DNA of 64,000 nucleotides. Origin: Candidatus Woesearchaeota archaeon (GTDB lineage: Archaea > Nanobdellota > Nanobdellia > Pacearchaeales > GW2011-AR1). Below are positions 2,825-50,822 of this stretch, in pieces (position 1 is the first letter of the stretch; every line of letters begins with the position of its first letter). Both the position numbers and the translations under genes were made by a program. The stretch is from NCBI GenBank assembly GCA_964545065.1, contig CAZJEO010000001.1, positions 128,663-192,662 on the forward strand. The letters run 5' to 3'. Under the pieces are notes generated by a model. That model worked only from the letters and a program-made list of their open reading frames with translations, did no database searches and was not told where the DNA came from.

Positions 2825-2853
2825 AACACACCCACCAAATAGGTCTAAAAAAA

Positions 2854-2882
2854 GGGCGTACCCAAAGAGGGCACGAGAACCT
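2854..2882. repeat. 29-nt repeat GGGCGTACCCAAAGAGGGCACGAGAACCT (second copy at 33371-33399 inside nusA)
   Basis: 27/29 identity between the two copies. GC-rich in an AT-rich genome. Confidence 0.6.
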
Positions 2883-2965
2883 GCAAGCAGGTACCCCGAA
2901 AGATTTTGAAAAAAAATCTTTACAAGGGGCAACATTTAAATATCATATATGTATTCGATTATCAT
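2883..2965 (+). promoter_or_regulatory. arsR promoter region: A-rich inverted repeat, TTTAAATA box and palindromic CATATATG/ATCATAT elements
   Basis: AAAGATTTT-gaaaa-AAAATCTTT inverted repeat. TTTAAATA sits about 30 nt upstream of the ATG at 2966. ATCATAT direct repeats overlap the start. Confidence 0.35.
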
Positions 2966-5253: not shown

Positions 5254-7743
5254 ATGAAAAAAATATATAAAATAGAAGGAATTACTTGTGCTAGTTGTGC
5301 TGGGCATATAGAAAGGGCCGTGAAGAAAATTAAAGGTGTAACAAATGCAAGTGTGAATTTTGCTAACAAAAAAGCATATATTGAAGGAGATTTTAATGAT
5401 AATGAGATAAAAGAATCTGTTTCTAAAATTGGTAATTATAAAGCAATATCAGAAGATGAAAAAGATAGTGAGGTTAAAAAAGAAGGAAAAGATTCTGGAA
5501 AAGAACAAACAACGACTTTTACTGTTAAAGGTTTAGATAATCCTCATTGTAGTATGACTGTTGAAAAAGCTGTTAAAAAATTGAAAGGTATTGGTAAGGT
5601 TGATATTAATATTAATACTCACAAGGCTAAAATTACTCATTCAATTCCTAAAGAGGAAATAATCAAAGCAATAAATGATGCAGGTTATGAAGTTTTGAAA
5701 GAAAGTGAAGATGAAAAAGATTCGGAAATTAAAGAGATGAACAAGGCTAAAAAAAGAATGTGGTATGCTTGGATATTTGCTTTGCCTGTTGGTATATTAA
5801 TGATTTTGGAAATGTTCACTAAATTGGAAGTTCCTTATATTGATTATATTTTTGTTTTAGCTGCTATCCCTGTTTTGTTTATTTTTGGTTGGAAGACTTA
5901 TGTTTCTGGGTTGAAGTCTGCAAGGTATCTTGCATTTAATATGGACTTCTTAATTATGCTTGGAACATTTGCAGCATTTATTACTGGGATAATCGGGTTT
6001 TTTCTTCCTATAGAAAATTATGCTGCAATAGCCGCAATGATTATGGCTTTTCATTTGACAGGGAGATATGTTGAAGCTAAGGCAAGAGGGAAAGCATCTG
6101 AAGCTATAAAAAAATTACTTGAGTTGGGTGTAAAAACTGCGGTGGTTATTAGAAATAATTCCCCAAGGGATGACTCCTCAAAGGATGACTCTGGTGAGCC
6201 GTCTGGTGAGCCTAAGGAAATTGAAATTCCTATTTCTGAAGTTAAGATTGGAGATGTGATGATTGTTAAACCAGGAGAAAAGATTCCTACAGATGGTATT
6301 GTTATTAAGGGTGAATCTGCGGTTGATGAATCAATGGTGAGTGGAGAGAGTATGCCTGTTGAAAAAATGAAGAATTCAAAAGTTATTGGAGCTACAGTTA
6401 ATCAAGATGGTGTTTTATATGTTAAGGCGGAGAAGATTGGTAAGGATACTTTTTTGTCTCAGGTTGTTAAGTTAGTTGAAGAGGCTCAAGGAAGTAAGAT
6501 TCCAATACAGGAATTTGCAGATAAGATTACTCGGTACTTTGTTCCTGTTGTTATTGTGGTAGCTGTTTTAACGATTTTCATCTGGCTTGTTTTTCCAGAA
6601 GTAATGCAAAGTATAGCTGGTTTTTTTGACTTTCTCCCTTGGATTAATTTTAATGTTGGGCATGTTGCTCTTGCATTATTTGCTGCAATAGCTGTTTTAG
6701 TTATTGCTTGTCCTTGTGCCTTGGGTCTTGCTACACCAACTGCATTAATGGTTGGTTCTGGTTTAGGAGCTGGGAAAGGTATCTTCATTAGAAGGGGGGA
6801 AGCTATTCAAACAATGAAGGAAATTAAGACTATTATGTTTGATAAAACTGGAACAATAACGAAAGGGAAACCAGAAGTTACAGATATTATTGGAGATGAA
6901 AAGCAGATCTTAAAGATAGCAGGTTCTGTTGAGAGTGTTTCAGAGCACCCTCTTTCTAAGGCAATTGTAAAAAGAGCTAAGGAAAAGAGAATTAAATTGT
7001 TAGAAGTTAAGAACTTTAAAGCTAAGAGAGGTAGAGGAATTGAAGCTAGTTTAGGAAGAAATAAAATTCTTATTGGAAATAGAAAATTAATGACTGAGAA
7101 TAAAATTAGTTTTGAAGGTTATGAAGATAGAATTATAGAACTTGAAAATGATGGTAAGACTGTTATGATTTTATCTGATAATGGCAAAGTTTTAGGGCTC
7201 ATAGCTGTTGCAGATACTTTGAAACAAGATGCTAAAAAAACTATTTCTGAATTAAAAGAAATGGGTCTTAAGACTGTTATAATTACAGGAGATAATGAAA
7301 GAACTGCTAAGGCCATTGCAAAGCAAGTTGGTATTGATTCTGTTTTAGCAGATGTGTTACCTGATGAAAAAATGAAGAAAGTTATGGAGCTTCAGAAGAC
7401 AGGAATGGTGGCTTTTGTTGGCGATGGTATTAATGATGCTCCTGCTTTGAAGCAGGCAAATGTTGGAATTGCGATTGGAACTGGAACAGATATTGCAATT
7501 GAATCGGGAGATATAATTCTTGCTAAGGGTGATTTGCAGGGAGTTGTTTCTGCAATTAAGTTAAGCAAGGAAACATTCAAGAAAATAAAACAAAACTTGT
7601 TCTGGGCTTTTGGTTATAATATTGTAGCTATCCCTCTTGCGATAATTGGAGTTTTGCATCCTGTGATTGCTGAGATAGCAATGGCGACTTCTTCATTGAC
7701 TGTTGTGGGGAATGCTAATCTTTTGAGAAGGAAGAAGATTTAG
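5254..7743 (+). CDS. copA: copper-translocating P1B-type ATPase with two N-terminal HMA domains
   Basis: [13 protein letters not shown] motif, [19 protein letters not shown] and GDGINDAP motifs. 829 aa. Confidence 0.9.
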
Positions 7744-7923
7744 GAAGAGAAGGGAATTTTAATTTGTTGGGAAGGGAGAGGATATAGGAAGAGAGGGAGA
7801 GGGGAATTTATGGATACCAAAATCTTTAATAAATCCTTAAAATAGCAGTTTTAAATTGATTTTATGCGGTTTATCTACAAAAGATAACGATAAATTTATA
7901 AATGCCCTTATCATGAATAATTT

Positions 7924-9162
7924 ATGATAATTGAAACATCTGTGGAAAATTATTTATCGATTAAAGAAAAAGTTACACTTAGCCTTGACTCTGGTTCTAG
8001 CAAAAAACTTTCAAATAATTTAGTAGAAATGCCTAAAAACGAAAGATTGCTCAAGTCTGCAGTAATTTACGGAGCAAATGCATCAGGAAAATCTAACATA
8101 ATAAAATCGGTCTTTTTTATTTGGAACATGGTTAAAAACTCTCACTTATTTAATGTTGATGTAAAAATTCCCCGAGTTCCCTTTAAATTAGAAGAAAGCT
8201 ATCTAAAAAAACCAAGTAAATTTGAGATAATATTTATTCATAATAAAATAAAATACAAATATGGTTTTTCATGTGATAATGATAAATTCATTGAAGAATA
8301 TTTATATTACTGGCCTCAAGGAAGAGAGTCTAAAATTTTTAGTAGAAAAAACTCAAAAGAATTTGATTTCACAATTGATAGAAAACAACAACAATTAATT
8401 AAATCGCAAACAAATGAAAATGTGCTATATCTTTCGAGAGCAACTCAATTAGGATATCAAGGAACCAAAGAAGCTTATGATTTTATAATAAATAATCTTG
8501 TTATAAATTATAGTCCCATGTGGGAAGAGATTACAATTAAAAAAATATATGAAGATAATAAATTAAAAAATAAGATTATTGAAATACTTCAAAAAGCAGA
8601 TTTTGGTGGCATAACAGACATTAAAGTTATCAAAGATAAAAGAAAAGTTGGAGGAATTGAGTTTAAATTTGAAAAAGAAAAGATACTATCCAATCCATTA
8701 AAACCAGAAGAACAAGAATTCTATGATTTCAAATTTGTTCATAAGACTAAAAGTGGAAAATTAATTGATTTTGCATTCAATGAAGAATCTAATGGTACGA
8801 GAAGGACACTCTCCATGCTTGGGCCAATATTTGAAATATTAGAACTAGGAAAAGTCGCATTCATTGATGAATTTGAATTAAATTTGCATTCCAACATTAC
8901 AAAGTTTTTAATAAAACTTTTTAATAGTAAATTAAATAAAAAAAATGCTCAATTAATTTTTACAACTCACGACACAACTTTGTTAGATAATGAAATATTT
9001 AGAAGAGATCAAATATATATTTGTTCAAAAGATAAAAATAACTCAAGTAAATTAAATTCTTATATCGATTACAATCTTAGAGAAGATTCTGACTTTGAAA
9101 GAGCTTATTTAAATGGAAGAGTGGGAGGACTTCCTTTTATAGATGAAACTTTATTCAATTAA
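7924..9162 (+). CDS. AAA_21-type ATPase (AbiLi/RloA-like) of a two-gene module
   Basis: Walker A VIYGANASGKSNIIKS. ABC-like Walker B/D-loop LIFTTHDTTLLD. About 400 aa, the typical partner of RloB proteins. Confidence 0.7.
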   Translation: MIIETSVENYLSIKEKVTLSLDSGSSKKLSNNLVEMPKNERLLKSAVIYGANASGKSNIIKSVFFIWNMVKNSHLFNVDVKIPRVPFKLEESYLKKPSKFEIIFIHNKIKYKYGFSCDNDKFIEEYLYYWPQGRESKIFSRKNSKEFDFTIDRKQQQLIKSQTNENVLYLSRATQLGYQGTKEAYDFIINNLVINYSPMWEEITIKKIYEDNKLKNKIIEILQKADFGGITDIKVIKDKRKVGGIEFKFEKEKILSNPLKPEEQEFYDFKFVHKTKSGKLIDFAFNEESNGTRRTLSMLGPIFEILELGKVAFIDEFELNLHSNITKFLIKLFNSKLNKKNAQLIFTTHDTTLLDNEIFRRDQIYICSKDKNNSSKLNSYIDYNLREDSDFERAYLNGRVGGLPFIDETLFN

Positions 9163-9164
9163 AA

Positions 9165-9770
9165 ATGGTGAGGAAAAGAGGGAGAAAACCCACAAACAAT
9201 CTTTGGATATTTTGTGAAGGTGAAAAAACAGAAATTAATTATTTTAGTAAATTAAAAACGCATGAAAGAATTTCTAGAATTAATATAAAAGTCAAGAGTG
9301 CAGATAAAATTACTGATGCTATTGGAGTTGTAAAATATGCCATTAGTTTTCTTCAAAATAAAAAAAGAGATTTTGAACCTGGTGATTTGATCTATTGCGT
9401 GCTTGATAGAGATGCTAACACAAATCAACATCTAGAAAAGGCATTAAAATTAGCAAACGAGAATGGTATCCTAATTATATTTTCTAACCCTTGTTTTGAA
9501 TATTGGATTCTTTGCCATTTTGAATATTTCATCACAACCTGTAATCCAGATGATATGATTAGAAAATTAAAGAAAAATTTAGGAATATATAGAAAGAATG
9601 ATTCGGATATTTACAAAAAGACGCAAGATAAAATAGCAATTGCGATAAGTAATGCTAAAAAAATTAAAGATACTCATGAAAAAAATGGGATCAAATTAAT
9701 TAGCCGAGAAAGTAATCCTTCAACATATGTTTTTGAATTGATTGAAAAGATTGAAGAATTAAGAGATTAA
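9165..9770 (+). CDS. RloB-like (AbiLii-like, TOPRIM/OLD-related) protein
   Basis: N-terminus WIFCEGEKTEINYF matches the RloB signature (CEGEKTEPNYF). Begins 3 nt after the ATPase stop. Confidence 0.7.
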   Translation: MVRKRGRKPTNNLWIFCEGEKTEINYFSKLKTHERISRINIKVKSADKITDAIGVVKYAISFLQNKKRDFEPGDLIYCVLDRDANTNQHLEKALKLANENGILIIFSNPCFEYWILCHFEYFITTCNPDDMIRKLKKNLGIYRKNDSDIYKKTQDKIAIAISNAKKIKDTHEKNGIKLISRESNPSTYVFELIEKIEELRD

Positions 9771-23273: not shown

Positions 23274-23311
23274 CAAAGCTTTTTTAAATCTAAATTTATT
23301 TAGTGAGCTAT

Positions 23312-23383
23312 GGCTCCATAGCTTCCCAAGGGATGACCTCTTCGAGGCCTCAGCCTTTTTCGGTTGCTTCGCAGTCACCATAC
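23312..23383 (+). mobile_element. mini-element copy A: a 12-nt duplicate of the tRNA-Lys 5' end plus a 60-nt GC-rich insert with the TCCCAAGGGATGACC core
   Basis: GGCTCCATAGCT at 23312-23323 repeats the start of the tRNA at 23384. Core at 23324-23338. Together with the preceding AGCTATGG the 5' duplicate forms an 8-bp perfect inverted repeat. Confidence 0.55.
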
Positions 23384-23457
23384 GGCTCCATAGCTCAGCC
23401 TGGCAGAGCACTGGACTTTTAATCCAGGTGTCGGGGGTTCAAATCCCTCTGGGGCCA
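23384..23457 (+). tRNA. tRNA-Lys (anticodon TTT)
   Basis: Cloverleaf: acceptor GGCTCCA/TGGGGCC, D-arm GCTCAGCCTGGCAGAGC, anticodon stem CTGGA/TCCAG with loop CTTTTAA, T-arm GGGGGTTCAAATCCCTC. Confidence 0.8.
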
Positions 23458-32964: not shown

Positions 32965-33086
32965 ATCCCCAATAAGTTTATAAAATGATTAATTCTTCAA
33001 GAAATATAAAAGATGGAAATGAAAAATAGGAAATTTTGCATGGATACAAAATCAGGAGATTTTGCATAATGGTGAACACGATAAAC

Positions 33087-33536
33087 ATGCAGGACATGAG
33101 ATACCTTAATTTATTTGGTAGGGTTACTCAAGTTAATACGCGGTTTTGTTTTAAGTACAATGAGGGACTTGTTTTTTGTGTTCCAAAGCCAATGATTTTC
33201 AAAGCTGTTGGAAAAGGTGCAAGCAATATTAGAAAATTAAATGAAATTCTCGGAAAGAAAATAAAAATTATTGCAAGTCCGCGAGGAATTGAAGATGCTA
33301 AATCTTTTATTGAAAGTATTGTAAAACCAGTTACATTTAAGGGTTTGGAAGTTAAGGATAATACCCAAACGGGCATACCCAAGGAGGGCACGAGAACCTC
33401 TAACGAGGCAAGTGAAATTGTACTTACTGCAGGAATGCAGAGTAAGGCGGCTTTGATTGGCAGGAATAAGAGAAGGCTTTTAGAGATGCAAAAAATTGTT
33501 CATGATTTTTTTGGGAAAGAGTTTCGGATTATTTAG
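33087..33536 (+). CDS. nusA: archaeal NusA-like KH-domain transcription factor
   Basis: Two KH-type GxxG regions (AVGKGASNIRKL, ALIGRNKRRL) and the conserved position after rpoA. Exact start uncertain (candidate ATGs at 33069 and 33087). Confidence 0.6.
   Translation: MQDMRYLNLFGRVTQVNTRFCFKYNEGLVFCVPKPMIFKAVGKGASNIRKLNEILGKKIKIIASPRGIEDAKSFIESIVKPVTFKGLEVKDNTQTGIPKEGTRTSNEASEIVLTAGMQSKAALIGRNKRRLLEMQKIVHDFFGKEFRII
33371..33399. repeat. 29-nt repeat copy inside nusA (GGGCATACCCAAGGAGGGCACGAGAACCT)
   Basis: 27/29 match to 2854-2882. In-frame, encoding GIPKEGTRTS in the inter-KH region. Confidence 0.6.
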
Positions 33537-45360: not shown

Positions 45361-45556
45361 GTAATTGATAGGAAAAGGAGATAGATAAATTTATTGGATA
45401 TTAGCTGCTTCTAAGATTAATGGCTCAACATCGGCTTTCAGACACGATGTTTCGCTAAGAATATAATTAATGTGAAAGAAATTTATTACGCTGATTATTA
45501 GATTATCAGTTTATTAATTTGCGAATGTTAATGAGCAAGAATTTTTTATTATCAAA

Positions 45557-45804
45557 CCTTCAAACTAACTATCTTACTAATTCCATCATGCATTTGCAGA
45601 CAACCCGCTGGTTTTCTTTACTCAAGCCCACACTCGTTTCTGTGGATTAGACTCGTGTAAACTCTCGGACTTTCCTCCCCCCAAGGGATGATTCTGGTGA
45701 ACCTCAAAGCATTGAACCCGATTTCTAATGCAATCCGGTGAAATCGCGAGCATGATGGGAATTTATACCTTTAAACTAACTATTTTTGAGATGCCATCAT
45801 GCAT
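45557..45804. mobile_element. mini-element copy B at the smc 3' end: a 37-nt direct duplication encoding the smc C-terminus, flanking a ~174-nt insert with the CCCCAAGGGATGA core
   Basis: DR1 45557-45593 and DR2 45768-45804 (28/37 nt identical). Both translate on the minus strand to MHDGISKIVSLKV-stop. The insert shares GCCCACACTC, CGTGTAAACTCT and the core with copy C. Confidence 0.65.
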
Positions 45805-48618
45805 GCTAACACCATAAAGATTTGTAGCGTTTGAGATAATTTGGTCGTTGTGAGATATTATGATATATTGTCCTTTTTGCATGTATTTATTTAGGAGATT
45901 TGCAAGGCGTTCTGAGTTTCGCTTGTCCAGAGCTGCGTCAATTTCATCAAGTACATAAAAATAATATGGATTTAATTCTTGTATTGCAAAAATAAGTGAT
46001 AAAGCGACAAGGGTTTGTTCTCCTCCTGAAAGTGATTTGACATCAAAGTATTTTCCGTGTCCTGTTTTGACTGTTATGTTGATTCCTGCGACAAAAGGAT
46101 CTTTTCTATCTTCTATTTCAAGATATACTTGTCCTTTTTCACTTAATTGAGAAAAGATGCGAGAGAAGTTTTCATTGAGTGCTGTTAGTGTTTTGACAAA
46201 TGTCTTTTTCTTTTTTATATCAATTTCATGAATTATTTTCAAGATGCTCTCTTTTTCTTTTGCTATGATTTCTGTTTTCTCTTTTATTAAATCATATTCT
46301 TTTTTTACATGGTCATAAACCTCCAGAGAACGCATATTTACAGAACCGATTCGCGACATTATTTCTTGAGCTTTAGTTAGTTTTATTAAAAGTGCATCTT
46401 TTCCTGCTTTTATTATTTCAATGTTCGGGAAGCCGAGCATTTCTGTTTCAAGATTTTCCACTTCTGCATTAACTCTTGCTCTATCTATCTTTAAATTGTT
46501 CATTTGTTGTTCAATATTATAAATTGAATTTTTATTTGTAGAAAGAGTTGATTCACTTTCACGGATGTTTTTTTGTAGGGCGTCTCTTTCTGAAATTAAT
46601 TTCTGGAACTTCTTAATAAGCTCTTGCTCTTGTGCTTTCTTTTTTTCAAGTGATTCTTCTTTTTCGTTCATTTCGCTATTTAGCGCTTTAAGTTCTTGAA
46701 TTAAATCTTCTTCTTCTCTATTTAATTGCTTCAAGGAAATCTTTGAACGGTCAAATTCTCTTTGCTTAAATGAAATTTCTGAATTAATGTTTTCTTTTGT
46801 TCTCAAGGAAATCTCTTGAATCTCTATACGCGCTGTTTCATATTTCTGTTCTATGTTTGAAGTCTCATCAAAGTTTATCTCAAGGTTCTTTTTTCTTTTT
46901 GATAATTCTGTAAGTTCTCCTTTCAATATATCTATTTTTTCCTGAAGAGCTTTAATCTGATTTTTCTTTTCGTCTATGTTTAAAAGATTGATCAAATCTA
47001 ACTCTCTTTTTGAAACTTCTGAAGTGATTTGTTCTACTTGTTCTTTTATGATATCTCTTTGAGAATACAACTCGCTCAATTTTTTATCTGAATCCTCTAT
47101 CTCTTGTTTTAGATTTTCAATTTTTGGCAGTGTTTCTTTATGGATTGATTCAATATGTCCAGAAGTTATTTTACTTTTACAAATAGGGCAAACATCCATC
47201 TTAGCTATTTTTTCAATTAATTTGTTTTGTTTGTCGATTTCATATTCGTTTGCCGCAGAAATTTTTTCCATCTGAATTTCTTTTTTAGCCAGTGAATCCA
47301 AAAGGTCTTTTCTTTCTGCCAGCGAAACCTTTAGAGAGTGGAGTTTTTCTTCATTAGTGTTTCTATCAAATAAATCTTTTGAAAAAGACCTTATTTGCTT
47401 TAGAAGAAATTCTGATTCATTTGTATAATTTTGTAAGAGAATAGTTTTGTCGCTGATTCGTTCTTTGATTGATTTGAATTCTGATTTTATTGTATAGAAC
47501 TTTTTTCTTTGATCTTCTAATTCCTCTAGCTGTTTTTTCTTGTCTTCGATTTGCTTCTGGGTTTTTGAAGTGCTGGGGGAACTATTTAATTCTTTTATTG
47601 CTAATTCATTCTCATTTAAGGTTTGTGAGAACTCTTGTTTTTGCCTAGAGATTTCTGTAAGTTTTGATTCATAATTTTCAATTCTTACATTTATTCCTGC
47701 GAGTTCTGCTCTTATGTTTGCTATTTCCTGGTTGAGTTTTTCTTGTTCTAAGCCAGTTGATTTTTGGATTGTAGAATTTATTGAATTTATTTTTGATTCT
47801 GTTGTATCAATGGTAGTTTGTATTCCAAGATTTGTTTTTTTTATTTTTTCTATATTCTTGTTCTTTTTTGCTATTTCTTCTTCTATGGAAAGCGACTCTT
47901 TTTTCTTTTTGACTAAATCGTGGTAGATTATGCTTGCCTTATATCTCTTGATATCTTTTTCAAGTTTTTTGAATCTCAAGGCTTGCTGTCGTTCTTTTTC
48001 TAAATTATTCAAATAGCTTGTCCGTTCTCGTAAAATCGCAAGGGCTTCTTTTATTTTTTCTTCTGTTTTATCTAGTTCTTTTAGTGATCTTGTTTTACGG
48101 GTTTCATAGATTGCAATTCCTGAAACTTCTTCGATTATTTTTCTTCGTTCTTCTGACTGCATTCTTACTAAATTTTGGATTTCTCCCTGAAGGATTATGT
48201 TAAACCCATTAGGGTCTATACCTGCTTGAGCTAATAATGCCAAAACTTCTTGCCGTGTTTTTGTTTCTCCATTGATCTTGTAAATGCTCTGGCCATTTCT
48301 TCTTACGATTCTTTTTATTGAGATTTCGTTTTGGTCTATTGAAAAGGTTTTATCAGAATTGTCAAATGTCATTTCAACTGCTGCTTCTTTTGCTGGAGAG
48401 GCGGCTTTTGTTCCTAGGAAGATTAGGTTTTTTGCTTTGGCTGCCCGCATTGACTTTATGCTCAGTCTCCCCAACACAAAACACAGGGCATCTGAGATAT
48501 TGCTTTTTCCGTTTCCGTTTGGACCGAGGATGACATTTATTCCTGGTGTGAAAGGCACTTCTGTTTTTTTTACAAAGCTCTTGAATCCGTGCATCACTAA
48601 TCTTTTTATGTGGGTCAT
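45763..48618 (-). CDS. smc: SMC-family chromosome segregation ATPase
   Basis: N-terminal Walker A GPNGNGKSNISDAL. Long coiled coils. C-terminal LSGGEQTLVALSLIFAIQ...VLDEIDAALD. Confidence 0.85.
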   Translation of the reverse strand: MTHIKRLVMHGFKSFVKKTEVPFTPGINVILGPNGNGKSNISDALCFVLGRLSIKSMRAAKAKNLIFLGTKAASPAKEAAVEMTFDNSDKTFSIDQNEISIKRIVRRNGQSIYKINGETKTRQEVLALLAQAGIDPNGFNIILQGEIQNLVRMQSEERRKIIEEVSGIAIYETRKTRSLKELDKTEEKIKEALAILRERTSYLNNLEKERQQALRFKKLEKDIKRYKASIIYHDLVKKKKESLSIEEEIAKKNKNIEKIKKTNLGIQTTIDTTESKINSINSTIQKSTGLEQEKLNQEIANIRAELAGINVRIENYESKLTEISRQKQEFSQTLNENELAIKELNSSPSTSKTQKQIEDKKKQLEELEDQRKKFYTIKSEFKSIKERISDKTILLQNYTNESEFLLKQIRSFSKDLFDRNTNEEKLHSLKVSLAERKDLLDSLAKKEIQMEKISAANEYEIDKQNKLIEKIAKMDVCPICKSKITSGHIESIHKETLPKIENLKQEIEDSDKKLSELYSQRDIIKEQVEQITSEVSKRELDLINLLNIDEKKNQIKALQEKIDILKGELTELSKRKKNLEINFDETSNIEQKYETARIEIQEISLRTKENINSEISFKQREFDRSKISLKQLNREEEDLIQELKALNSEMNEKEESLEKKKAQEQELIKKFQKLISERDALQKNIRESESTLSTNKNSIYNIEQQMNNLKIDRARVNAEVENLETEMLGFPNIEIIKAGKDALLIKLTKAQEIMSRIGSVNMRSLEVYDHVKKEYDLIKEKTEIIAKEKESILKIIHEIDIKKKKTFVKTLTALNENFSRIFSQLSEKGQVYLEIEDRKDPFVAGINITVKTGHGKYFDVKSLSGGEQTLVALSLIFAIQELNPYYFYVLDEIDAALDKRNSERLANLLNKYMQKGQYIIISHNDQIISNATNLYGVSMHDGISKIVSLKV

Positions 48619-49437: not shown

Positions 49438-49743
49438 CTAGAATTTGTACAAATATTTTTTCACATTTTGAACTTTTCCGAATTTTATAGGAATTCCTTC
49501 TTTTTTTAAGAACGCTATTTTATTTTTTGTTCCAGAAGCAAAACCTCCGACTTCTCCATTTGAATTTATGACCCTATGACATGGCACTTGTGGGGCGTAG
49601 GGGTTTTTGTTCATTGCTGTTCCTACGGCTTGATATGCTTTTGTGTTTAGTGCTTGAGCAAGAGCTTTGTAGGTTGTGATTTTTCCTTTTGGAACTTGCC
49701 TTAACAAGGCGTAACATTTTTCTGAGAATGATTTTTGTGGCAT
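49438..49743 (-). CDS. ogt: methylated-DNA-protein-cysteine methyltransferase-like protein (C-terminal domain only)
   Basis: PCHRVINSNG active-site motif. ATG at 49743-49741 gives 101 aa (the track's longer ORF uses a GTG start). Confidence 0.7.
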   Translation of the reverse strand: MPQKSFSEKCYALLRQVPKGKITTYKALAQALNTKAYQAVGTAMNKNPYAPQVPCHRVINSNGEVGGFASGTKNKIAFLKKEGIPIKFGKVQNVKKYLYKF

Positions 49744-49895
49744 TTTGAAAATAGCGGGGGCTGCTCGAGCCCACACTCAGAGTTATTAATTGTAATTTTC
49801 TCTCTTCGTGTAAACTCTTCCCAAGGGATGACCCAAGAAGGGCCTCGGAATTTGAGTTCAAATCCCTTATTGATTTCATTTTAAAAATAGCGGGG
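49741..49895. mobile_element. mini-element copy C between tRNA-iMet and ogt: a 21-nt direct duplication (tRNA 3' end plus ogt start) flanking a 113-nt insert with the TCCCAAGGGATGACC core
   Basis: CATTTTGAAAATAGCGGGGGC at 49741-49761 and CATTTTAAAAATAGCGGGGGC at 49875-49895. Core at 49819-49833. Also contains GCCCACACTC, CGTGTAAACTCT and a T-loop-like GTTCAAATCCC. Confidence 0.65.
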
Positions 49896-49963
49896 GCGGG
49901 ATTTGAACCACGCGACCTCCGGGTTATGGGCCCGACGAGCACTCCAGACTGCTCCACCCCGCT
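49889..49963 (-). tRNA. tRNA-Met (CAT), initiator-like (A1:U72, AGCGGGG start)
   Basis: Reverse complement reads AGCGGGGTGGAGC...TCGGGCCCATAACCCGG...TTCAAATCCCGCCCCCGCT. Anticodon loop CCCATAA. Confidence 0.75.
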
Positions 49964-50047
49964 AATAATTGGTGTGTCAGATGACTTTTAAAGTTTTCTT
50001 AATCAAATAATAAAGCTTATAAGTTTAAGATTATATTCTAAAAGTAT

Positions 50048-50129
50048 GCCCAGATGGCGGAGTGGTTAACGCACTAGATTGCTAATCTAGACCCTTCGGG
50101 GTGCGTAGGTTCGAATCCTGCTCTGGGCG
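50048..50129 (+). tRNA. tRNA-Ser (anticodon GCT), type II with long variable arm
   Basis: Acceptor GCCCAGA/TCTGGGC. Anticodon stem-loop CTAGA-TTGCTAA-TCTAG. Variable arm CCCTTCGGGGTGC. T-arm GTAGGTTCGAATCCTGC. Confidence 0.8.
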
Positions 50130-50138
50130 TATATTAAA

Positions 50139-50705
50139 ATGAAATTCATTATTATTCACGGATGTCCTTCAAATGCAGAGAAAGCTATGAGCCCTGAAAC
50201 AAGGACTTATGATAAACATTGGATTCCTTGGACTAAAAGAGAATTGTCTTCAAAAGGAATTGAAGTAGAAACACCCCTTATGCCTGAACCTTGGAAACCA
50301 GATTATAATAAATTTAAAGAGGAATTTGAAAAATATAGTGTTGGAGAAGATAGTGTATTAATTGGTCATAGTTGTGGATGTTCTTTTTTAGTTAGATGGC
50401 TTGGAGAAACAAAACAAAAAATAAATAAATTGATTCTTGTGGCACCGTGGAAAATTGAAGAAGGGGCTAGTGAATCTAAAAAAGCATTTTATGAATTCTC
50501 GATTGATACAACTATCAAAGATAGAGTTAAAGAAATCACAATGTTTACTGCTAATGATGAAGATGAAGATGGGAAGAAAGGTTTGAAAATGTTTCACGAA
50601 GCTTTTGGAGGGAAAATTATTGAACTTCAAGGAAGAGGACATTACACACTGGGGGACATGGGAACAGAAGAGTTTCCCGAATTAATCAAAGAAGCAACCC
50701 AATAA
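50139..50705 (+). CDS. small alpha/beta serine hydrolase (RBBP9/YdeN-like)
   Basis: IIIHGCPS near the N-terminus and LIGHSCGCSF (GxSxG nucleophile elbow). 188 aa. Confidence 0.6.
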   Translation: MKFIIIHGCPSNAEKAMSPETRTYDKHWIPWTKRELSSKGIEVETPLMPEPWKPDYNKFKEEFEKYSVGEDSVLIGHSCGCSFLVRWLGETKQKINKLILVAPWKIEEGASESKKAFYEFSIDTTIKDRVKEITMFTANDEDEDGKKGLKMFHEAFGGKIIELQGRGHYTLGDMGTEEFPELIKEATQ

Positions 50706-50735
50706 ATCAAACTTTAATATAAAATTATATATAAT

Positions 50736-50822
50736 ATTGCTAATCTAGACCCTTCGGGGTGCCCACGGTTTCCCAAGGAGGGATGACCTCGCTTTGCTCA
50801 GCCTCGAATCCTGCTCTGGACG
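50736..50822 (+). pseudogene. partial tRNA-Ser copy (anticodon loop to 3' end) with mini-element copy D (41 nt, core TCCCAAGGAGGGATGACC) replacing the 5' T-stem
   Basis: ATTGCTAATCTAGACCCTTCGGGGTGC and TCGAATCCTGCTCTGGACG match the tRNA-Ser at 50048 (1 mismatch). The insert at 50763-50803 replaces GTAGGT. Confidence 0.65.

Follow-up and report, generated by a model that had tools for sequence, protein, structure and literature searches.

In-frame repeats within essential genes are known mainly from Rickettsia and mitochondria. The Rickettsia palindromic elements (RPEs) are multi-copy, non-coding repeats that lie in frame in many unrelated and often essential genes, with a preferred frame, a conserved peptide and sites compatible with the protein fold, and that occur in non-coding and RNA-gene contexts as well (PMC10969869). 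In AT-rich mitochondrial genomes, GC clusters and the hairpin elements DHE, RHE and byps are short GC-rich hairpin units with conserved stems and varying loops, which merge and shuffle into composites and for which the mobiliser is not known (PMC4478555, PMC2800124). Here we describe an in-frame insertion in copA, a gene for a P1B-type Cu+ ATPase in a 64,000-nucleotide (nt) stretch of DNA from a Candidatus Woesearchaeota archaeon (contig CAZJEO010000001.1; the whole stretch is hereafter the window), together with the repeats to which it is related. We propose that the insertion is probably a small non-coding mobile repeat, resident in copA and translated with it, one of a mosaic family of mini-hairpins in DPANN archaea. 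A modular archaeal counterpart of the known systems would show an independent origin of such repeats in the reduced, AT-rich genomes of a third lineage.

An earlier reading of the window, made from the sequence alone (the sequence-only reading), had placed an in-frame insertion with a repeated core at 6151-6228, between the VIR and EIEIP segments of the actuator (A) domain of CopA. The sequence that it quoted is present in the window, and alignment delimits the insertion slightly more narrowly, to 6160-6213: exactly 54 nt with zero stop codons, read across the junctions as NN, 18 residues and then KEIEIP. The CopA homologues point to a source among DPANN archaea of the Pacearchaeota, Woesearchaeota and Nanoarchaeota types. 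In an alignment of 120 homologues, the 18 residues are missing from all of the other 119, which run from VIRxx directly into KEIEIP; one of these, P0002, is 82% identical. In the copA DNA of two relatives, L002 and L003, the site is cleanly empty (54 nt less), and comparison of the filled and empty sites reveals no duplication beyond 1-2 nt. Because the residues are missing from these homologues and the site is empty in two relatives, the ~20 residues in question are not shared as an ancestral linker would be. Judged from these alignments, the 18-residue stretch is a recent, lineage-specific in-frame insertion.

The position within the protein agrees with this assignment. Against the solved structure of Archaeoglobus fulgidus CopA (3J09), the insert corresponds to a gap between AVVIRD and GKEIAVP and, in an AlphaFold2 model of the window CopA (mean predicted local distance difference test (pLDDT) score of 74), residues 301-320 form a coil with a pLDDT below 50 between strands 295-300 and 321-326. 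Together, the gap and the coil place the insert as a projection from the turn of the first β-hairpin of the A-domain, at the tip of which it is predicted to form a disordered loop. This surface position is compatible with the fold, a finding that applies to the CopA insert, the one copy covered by the 3J09 alignment and the model. Orthologue alignment, absence from close relatives and a surface-loop location in the A-domain were the checks that the sequence-only reading had put forward, and each bears it out.

The insert consists of four modules (Table 1) of 15 + 15 + 12 + 12 nt, recovered by Tandem Repeats Finder as a 15-nt and a 12-nt doublet. The two differences between S1a and S1b amount to a compensatory change in a 3-bp stem, from CCC·CAA·GGG to CCU·CAA·AGG. 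The whole array recurs on another contig within the gene for Kae1/TsaD (L038, 3582-3635), where 52 of 54 nt are the same, the 18 encoded residues are identical and the flanks are unrelated; the boundaries of the 54-nt unit (TCCCC…GAGCCT) are sharp and identical in copA and Kae1. Parts of the array are found elsewhere: the junction of S1a and S1b in L063 and L071 (27/27 nt exact), that of S1b and S4 in L072 (28/28 nt exact), beside a tRNA-Lys identical to that of the window, and the order S1a+S4+S4 in L081. By these comparisons the 54-nt array is a discrete unit common to unrelated genes in different genomes. The ends of the copA array, TCCCCAAGGGA… and …TCTGGTGAGCCT, are not inverted repeats; the Kae1 copy has no target duplication beyond 1-2 nt, and there is no consistent short flanking repeat at copA and Kae1, the two sites with known boundaries. 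A PP-loop ATPase of L002 carries a further in-frame insert of 18 residues (54 nt), SPRDTQGGHKNLRAGDSGEP (SPRD…DSGEP), which its orthologues lack and at which no target duplication was seen; its ends are those of the copA insert, and its additional middle section, TACCCAAGGAGGGCACAAGAACC followed by TGCGAGCAGG, is also present in the window at 2852-2900 and 33362-33412.

Within the window, the core TCCCCAAGGGATGAC, searched with up to two mismatches, has further matches at 6175, 23323, 45678 and 49818, making five against 0.03 expected (0 of 100 shuffles), and TCTGGTGARCC, a motif that the sequence-only reading had listed as shared, occurs three times against 0.01 expected. That reading was also right that other copies adjoin tRNA-Lys, the smc 3′ end and tRNA-iMet. 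Three of its points stand in part. The doublets that it called tandem micro-duplications exist, but they were not made in copA, since the same junctions pre-exist in L063/L071, L072, L081 and L038; the recurrent core of 13-15 nt is a single module among those of a larger, mosaic family; and copies A to D, which it set alongside the copA copy, share the core but are not equivalent, being bracketed by duplicated target ends that the copA copy lacks.

The extent of the family was assessed with a conserved 23-mer of the longer arrays, GGTTCTYGTGCCCTCYTTGGGTA (antisense orientation), which an exact-match census located on 78 metagenomic stretches in 73 distinct contexts. When aligned, these contexts prove to be mosaics in which short units differ in order and number and some are duplicated in tandem: modules of 12-23 nt, assembled in arrays of 33-90 nt, with a GC content of at least 60% against 32.6% for the window. 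Thirty-three of the 73 contexts lie deep within long open reading frames (ORFs) in sense orientation, distributed over the three frames as 24/8/1, whereas antisense intragenic cases number at most six, are weak and in several instances are better explained by a sense ORF. All 34 intragenic copies leave the host ORF open. On inspection of the aligned contexts, five of the six frames of a typical array are free of stops, and stop codons alone therefore do not account for the orientation bias. The sense frames give hydrophilic peptides rich in Ser, Pro, Asp, Gly and Gln, with …DTQGGHENLQAG…, SPRD… and …DSGEP arising from the preferred frames. A Pfam scan of 30 host ORFs returned at least 20 unrelated families, including the DNA polymerase D large subunit (PolD DP2, at two different sites), LeuRS, another class I synthetase, TyrRS/TrpRS, the C-terminal domain of gyrase A (GyrA), Kae1/TsaD, Cbf5/TruB, GatB/E, ribosomal protein L22, NifU, pyruvate:ferredoxin oxidoreductase (POR), an M16 peptidase, an rRNA methyltransferase, a pyridoxal phosphate (PLP) decarboxylase and SNase. 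The proposal that such elements can sit in frame in an essential gene, first made for copA, thus extends to at least 20 unrelated families of mostly essential genes.

Orthologous sites can carry differing arrays, as in Kae1 (L038, L081 and L088) and in the rRNA methyltransferase (L063 and L067), and hence the arrays turn over in place. A 49-residue element-encoded peptide found one candidate only in a protein database, exact look-ups of the window SMC and RpoA proteins gave no record, Rfam at gathering and permissive thresholds returned tRNAs and rRNAs only, with no family for the repeats, and no description of a DPANN repeat family of this kind was found in the full-text literature, in which not all journals are covered. 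The family is widespread in Pacearchaeota/Woesearchaeota-like DPANN archaea and apparently new to the literature.

The modules have in common a capacity to form small hairpins, as their stems vary and yet stay complementary. Examples are GGCUC-ACCA-GAGUC, GGCAC-AGCA-GUGUC and GGCUCAAC-GAA-GUUGAGUC, the 4-bp stems CCUG-CUUG-CAGG, CCUC-GUAA-GAGG and CACC-UGU-GGUG, and the 3-bp stems CCC-UUG-GGG and CCU-UUG-AGG. One pair of the stem adjoining the 23-mer occurs as CG (12 times), GC (7), UG (3) and UA (2); 92% of the cells in this stem are paired, and its covariation score was reached by 0 of 500 shuffles. Stems of at least 5 bp are found in the zones flanking the 23-mer at frequencies of 62% and 39%, against 22% and 11%, respectively, in shuffled sequences.

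Taken together, the comparisons show that the array entered copA recently with the frame kept, and that it and its relatives lie in frame in many, mostly essential, genes and beside tRNAs, in line with the overall proposal of the sequence-only reading that a copy of a repeated mini-element sits in frame in the A-domain of CopA. We suggest that the family behaves as selfish DNA and that the surviving insertions are those that preserve the frame and encode hydrophilic, disordered surface loops rich in Ser, Pro, Asp and Gly; a survival filter of this kind, for an open frame and a surface loop, would explain the bias in orientation and frame. The modules would be under constraint to fold into short hairpins, with the antisense strand of the host gene preferred. 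Copying or insertion would include a step that depends on structure, probably acts on single-stranded DNA and is carried out by an enzyme with its gene elsewhere, as is suggested by the uniform orientation of the copies that are not translated and by strand-specific wobbles (about 50 G·T against 8 A·C on the antisense strand of the host genes, with the fixed 23-mer excluded). Arrays would change in place as modules are gained, lost or duplicated and, at tRNA genes and gene termini, insertion would proceed with a target duplication of 12-42 nt that leaves the gene intact.

Several observations limit this reading or weigh against it. Base composition contributes to the asymmetry of the wobbles and partly confounds the test of which strand folds. 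The stems of the copA insert are only 3-5 bp, and the insert alone folds no better than shuffled sequence (z = -0.8 as RNA; -0.5 and +0.4 as DNA). Conservation of the 23-mer is partly by construction because the census used exact matches, and translation of the copA insert is deduced from the preserved frame. No mobilising enzyme was found among the 20 window ORFs scanned with Pfam, which are housekeeping genes, nor any integrase or transposase. Neither the copA nor the Kae1 copy has terminal inverted repeats or a clear target-site duplication, and no known transposition chemistry is therefore implicated. GC skew is positive over the whole window and tracks gene strand, so replication-linked and transcription-linked orientation are not separable by skew.

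A more specific possibility, which we regard as doubtful and raise tentatively, is that DPANN archaea have an undescribed structure-targeted insertion system, in which single-stranded mini-hairpin arrays are copied into hairpin loops and A-rich sites. If so, the 12-42-nt duplications seen at tRNA T-loops and at the ends of genes would be products of such a system, as would new disordered loops of essential proteins, and its chemistry would stand apart from both IS/MITE transposition (MITE, miniature inverted-repeat transposable element) and classical integrases.

The mobile-repeat reading has wider consequences. It would explain low-complexity inserts in DPANN PolD, aminoacyl-tRNA synthetases, Kae1, Cbf5, L22 and CopA, inserts that have effects on alignment, phylogeny and the prediction of structure, as well as duplicated tRNA ends that may mislead the annotation of tRNAs and integration sites. 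The inserts would also form a natural experiment on which protein surface positions accept ~10-30 extra residues, and offer a tractable entry to the mobilisation mechanism in as yet uncultured organisms.

Among the alternatives, the least unlikely is templated patch repair, whereby a break in copA was filled from another array through template switching or gene conversion at microhomology and the family spreads passively with no dedicated enzyme. Such a process would fit the lack of a transposase, terminal inverted repeats and a target-site duplication of fixed length, the mosaic make-up, in which modules are duplicated in tandem and arrays turn over in place at orthologous sites, the variable target duplications (12-42 nt) at the tRNA and smc sites, and a degenerate duplication of the copA 3′ terminus that has no insert. 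Against it stand a 54-nt unit with the same sharp ends (TCCCC…GAGCCT) in two unrelated genes, an orientation that is uniform in the window (7/7) and at least 33:6 in genes, and a 23-mer highly conserved across divergent hosts. These boundaries, orientation and conservation fit a defined mobile unit better than random capture of filler, and we consider patch repair improbable.

It is very unlikely that the insert is removed or skipped in expression, either as a bulge-helix-bulge intron or by translational bypass like that of byps, so that CopA is made without the 18 residues. GC-rich mini-hairpin inserts are indeed bypassed in the AT-rich mitochondrial genomes of Magnusiomyces, and members of the archaeal family occupy loop positions of tRNAs, including 37/38 of a partial tRNA-Ala copy. 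However, the 34 frame-open intragenic copies, their strong preference in frame and orientation, and the stop-free 54 nt in copA are constraints on length and frame that would be needless if the insert were removed. The freedom in length and frame of an intron is not seen in either case compared with orthologues (54 nt in both copA and the L002 ATPase). Nor does the predicted fold of 6135-6240 contain a bulge-helix-bulge motif at the junctions with copA, since it lacks two 3-nt bulges around a 4-bp helix, and the frame is kept.

The members beside tRNA genes and smc bear on a third alternative, a scar of site-specific integration, in which the elements are attachment (att) remnants or cis-mobilisable mini-elements of an integrase-driven plasmid or virus. 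The window holds seven family members (Table 1), all in one orientation, including B and D, whose neighbouring genes lie on the other strand. Repeats of the target-gene end are seen on both sides of A, B, D and the tRNA-flank copies and not at the copA copy; at the tRNA and smc sites, the target duplications differ in length (12-42 nt). Nine of the 73 copies are within 150 nt of a tRNA, eight of the nine being on its 3′ side and co-oriented with it; by estimate, ~2% of the searched sequence is that close to one of the 57 tRNAs in 1.07 Mb. At Ser, Glu, Gln, Lys, Leu and Phe tRNAs, the intact gene is followed, after a short spacer, by modules and then by a repeat of the tRNA portion that extends from its T-loop to its 3′ end; in L043, the element is at position 37/38 of the partial tRNA-Ala copy, in an rRNA spacer.

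Table 1 Features of the window (nt, nucleotides; aa, amino acids).
Feature	Position	Strand	Basis or description
copA (host gene), P1B-type Cu+ ATPase, 829 aa	5254-7743	+	Pfam HMA (two), E1-E2_ATPase and Hydrolase (HAD); homologues; solved structures
In-frame insertion in copA, 54 nt, four modules, 18 residues	6160-6213	+	Homologue gap; empty sites; gap against 3J09; AlphaFold2 loop; Kae1 twin
Module S1a, TCCCCAAGGGATGAC	6160-6174	+	
Module S1b, TCCTCAAAGGATGAC	6175-6189	+	
Module S4 (first), TCTGGTGAGCCG	6190-6201	+	
Module S4 (second), TCTGGTGAGCCT	6202-6213	+	
Intergenic member, 23-mer TACCCAAAGAGGGCACGAGAACC and hairpin TGCAAGCAGG	2852-2900	+	Repeat search (D12); context alignment
Copy A, 5′ of tRNA-Lys (23384-23457)	23321-23383	+	Starts TTCCCAAGGGATGAC; hairpin CTCTTCGAGGCC
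Member in NusA-like ORF (33036-33536)	33362-33412	+	Alternative frame, …TGIPKEGTRTSNEAS…
Copy B, 169 nt, at smc 3′ end (ORF 45763-48618, minus)	45594-45762	+	Contains CCCCCAAGGGATGAT followed by TCTGGTGAACC
Copy D, 115 nt, 3′ of tRNA-iMet (49887-49964, minus)	49762-49876	+	
Modules …TCCCAAGGAGGGATGAC followed by CTCGCTTTGCTCAGCC, in partial tRNA-Ser copy (50738-50822)	50763-50803	+	Replace 5′ strand of T-stem; repeat D19

The individual sites give the detail. Copy A has on each side the same 12 nt of the tRNA-Lys 5′ end (GGCTCCATAGCT; 23309-23320 and 23384-23395). The duplication around copy D is 21 nt long (CATTTTRAAAATAGCGGGGGC; 49741-49761 and 49877-49897) and takes in the tRNA-iMet 3′ end; in L027 an identical tRNA-iMet is present with no copy D behind it. 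On either side of copy B stands the end of smc, comprising its last 13 codons and the stop, once in use (45763-45804) and once displaced (45552-45593). Both termini encode MHDGISKIVSLKV and a stop with different codons, the displaced one being nearer than the one in use to the uninterrupted terminus of the nearest relative, L027, in which copy B is missing. The partial tRNA-Ser copy is ~600 nt downstream of an intact tRNA-Ser (50047-50130). The member in the NusA-like ORF probably falls in a gap region relative to Aeropyrum pernix NusA (2CXC), an assignment that is only probable because identity to 2CXC is low.

These bracketing duplications of target-gene ends around A, B, D and the tRNA-Ser copy are what an integration scar predicts, as are the greater divergence of the smc terminus in use, expected if an end borne by attP replaced the native one, and the usual start of the tRNA duplications in the T-loop. 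The T-loop is a classic integrase sublocation. Integrase-mediated integration at tRNAs and gene ends, which leaves attL and attR, has in common with these copies that the smc terminus or the 3′ portion of a tRNA, starting in the T-loop, occurs on either side of the element and that the gene uses the incoming copy. The archaeal elements differ in that they are gene-less, 50-170 nt long and associated with many tRNAs, and in having intragenic copies without duplication, namely those in copA, Kae1 and the ATPase. Moreover, no integrase is present among the window ORFs scanned, the 23-mer has no match in viral contigs, no viral, phage or plasmid carrier was found, and similar arrays flank at least six tRNA species, which is not expected of a single site-specific integrase. 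An integration scar is, in our view, highly improbable. Local slippage within copA, with a coincidental resemblance to other copies, could produce the two tandem repeat pairs but is effectively refuted by the 54-nt array in Kae1 on another contig, the exact 27-28-nt sub-matches elsewhere and the fivefold recurrence of a core for which 0.03 matches are expected.

Compared with described systems, the mobile-repeat family behaves like the RPEs in that the same repeat lies in frame in CopA, Kae1, the PP-loop ATPase and 34 host ORFs spanning at least 20 Pfam families, with a preferred orientation and frame (33 versus at most 6; 24/8/1) and recurrent peptides. RPEs, however, are single palindromic units of ~100-150 bp in α-proteobacteria, whereas the archaeal arrays of 33-90 nt are built from 12-23-nt modules, use two frames and include tRNA-side copies with long target duplications; unit size, modularity and host set the family apart from RPE-1 to RPE-10. 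Its modules are, like mitochondrial GC clusters, GC-rich, mosaic and present or absent between relatives, but GC clusters are mostly intergenic with 2-3-nt flanking repeats (AG/ACT), and the archaeal copies are often intragenic and in a cellular archaeon.

The repetitive extragenic palindromes (REPs) and bacterial interspersed mosaic elements (BIMEs) mobilised by RAYT (TnpA-Y1) transposases, as well as hairpin-end elements of the IS200/IS605 type, offer a third comparison. These are small imperfect palindromes in mosaics, without terminal inverted repeats or target-site duplications; their recognition depends on structure and strand, and along a replichore they share one orientation. The archaeal family likewise consists of mosaic clusters of short, imperfect palindromes, yet REPs are extragenic by definition and the archaeal family has at least 34 intragenic copies. 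Neither RAYT, TnpA nor TnpB is present in the window ORFs scanned, and no conserved cleavage tetranucleotide was identified. A MITE identity does not fit, as there are no terminal inverted repeats and no target-site duplication of fixed length; no parent IS is present among the 20 window ORFs scanned. The family belongs neither to the RPEs nor to the mitochondrial GC clusters, and falls outside the definitions of MITEs and REPs; it may best be viewed as selfish DNA tolerated as surface loops, with RPEs and GC clusters as analogues.

Two further identities were considered at smc. On the minus strand of copy B, 45668-45679 reads GAGGAAAGUCCG, an exact match to the CR-I motif universal in RNase P RNA, and is followed by ACAGAAAC…GGGCUUGA; the homologous copy D lacks this 13-nt piece. 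Copy B was rejected as a miniature RNase P RNA: it has no Rfam RNase P match even at E ≤ 10, its fold reaches z = -2 only, the 9-bp 'terminal helix' involves the duplicated smc terminus, and the copy is missing in L027. The GAGGAAAGUCCG piece is probably one more mini-hairpin module. A diversity-generating retroelement was rejected for the smc repeat, the differences between copies being, on inspection, not adenine-specific. In six other DPANN lineages (L008, L009, L010, L012, L017 and L029), the smc 3′ terminus is also duplicated (~13 codons and the stop), immediately beyond the end of the smc match, with the same peptide and often different codons; the duplications always begin at the palindrome ATGCAT and have a GC-rich spacer of ~30 nt, CATGACTYCG…CGTCGT, that is unrelated to copy B.

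The surroundings of the other window members show additional features. Between tRNA-iMet and the gene for RNase HII, a small Ogt/MGMT-like ORF (49438-49776, minus; identity read from the translation only) is reached at its ATG by the 21-nt duplication around copy D; in L027 (8845-8905) only ~60 nt separate the two flanking genes, with no Ogt/MGMT-like ORF. A serine-hydrolase ORF (50139-50705; PF06821) lies between the intact tRNA-Ser and the partial copy, which spans the anticodon loop to the 3′ end, and the arrangement over 50047-50822 has the layout of a small integrated island. At 7708-7798, the copA 3′ terminus is present as a degenerate tandem duplication over the stop (44-nt period, 81% identity), an 11-residue stretch followed by GNFNLLGRERI and a stop, the two copies being directly adjacent with no insert. 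The same process that duplicates gene ends may have left this footprint. Downstream of copA (7924-9770) are genes for an AAA_21/SMC_N-like ATPase (412 residues) and a RloB-like protein (201 residues), a pairing characteristic of defence modules of the OLD/abortive-infection type; at this position, L002 and L003 carry other genes.

Two observations concern tRNAs outside the window. In L070 (~1090-1300, minus), three tRNA-Gln 3′ ends are separated by two different inserts of 53-54 nt, a repeat-spacer-repeat-spacer-repeat layout that suggests successive insertions at one site. The tRNA-Lys of L051 (3861-3982) and the tRNA-Leu of L086 (419-551) each have a canonical intron in the anticodon loop (49 and 52 nt). 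Mini-hairpins such as GACCTTTGGTC make up these introns too, with modules differing from those of the 3′-flank arrays.

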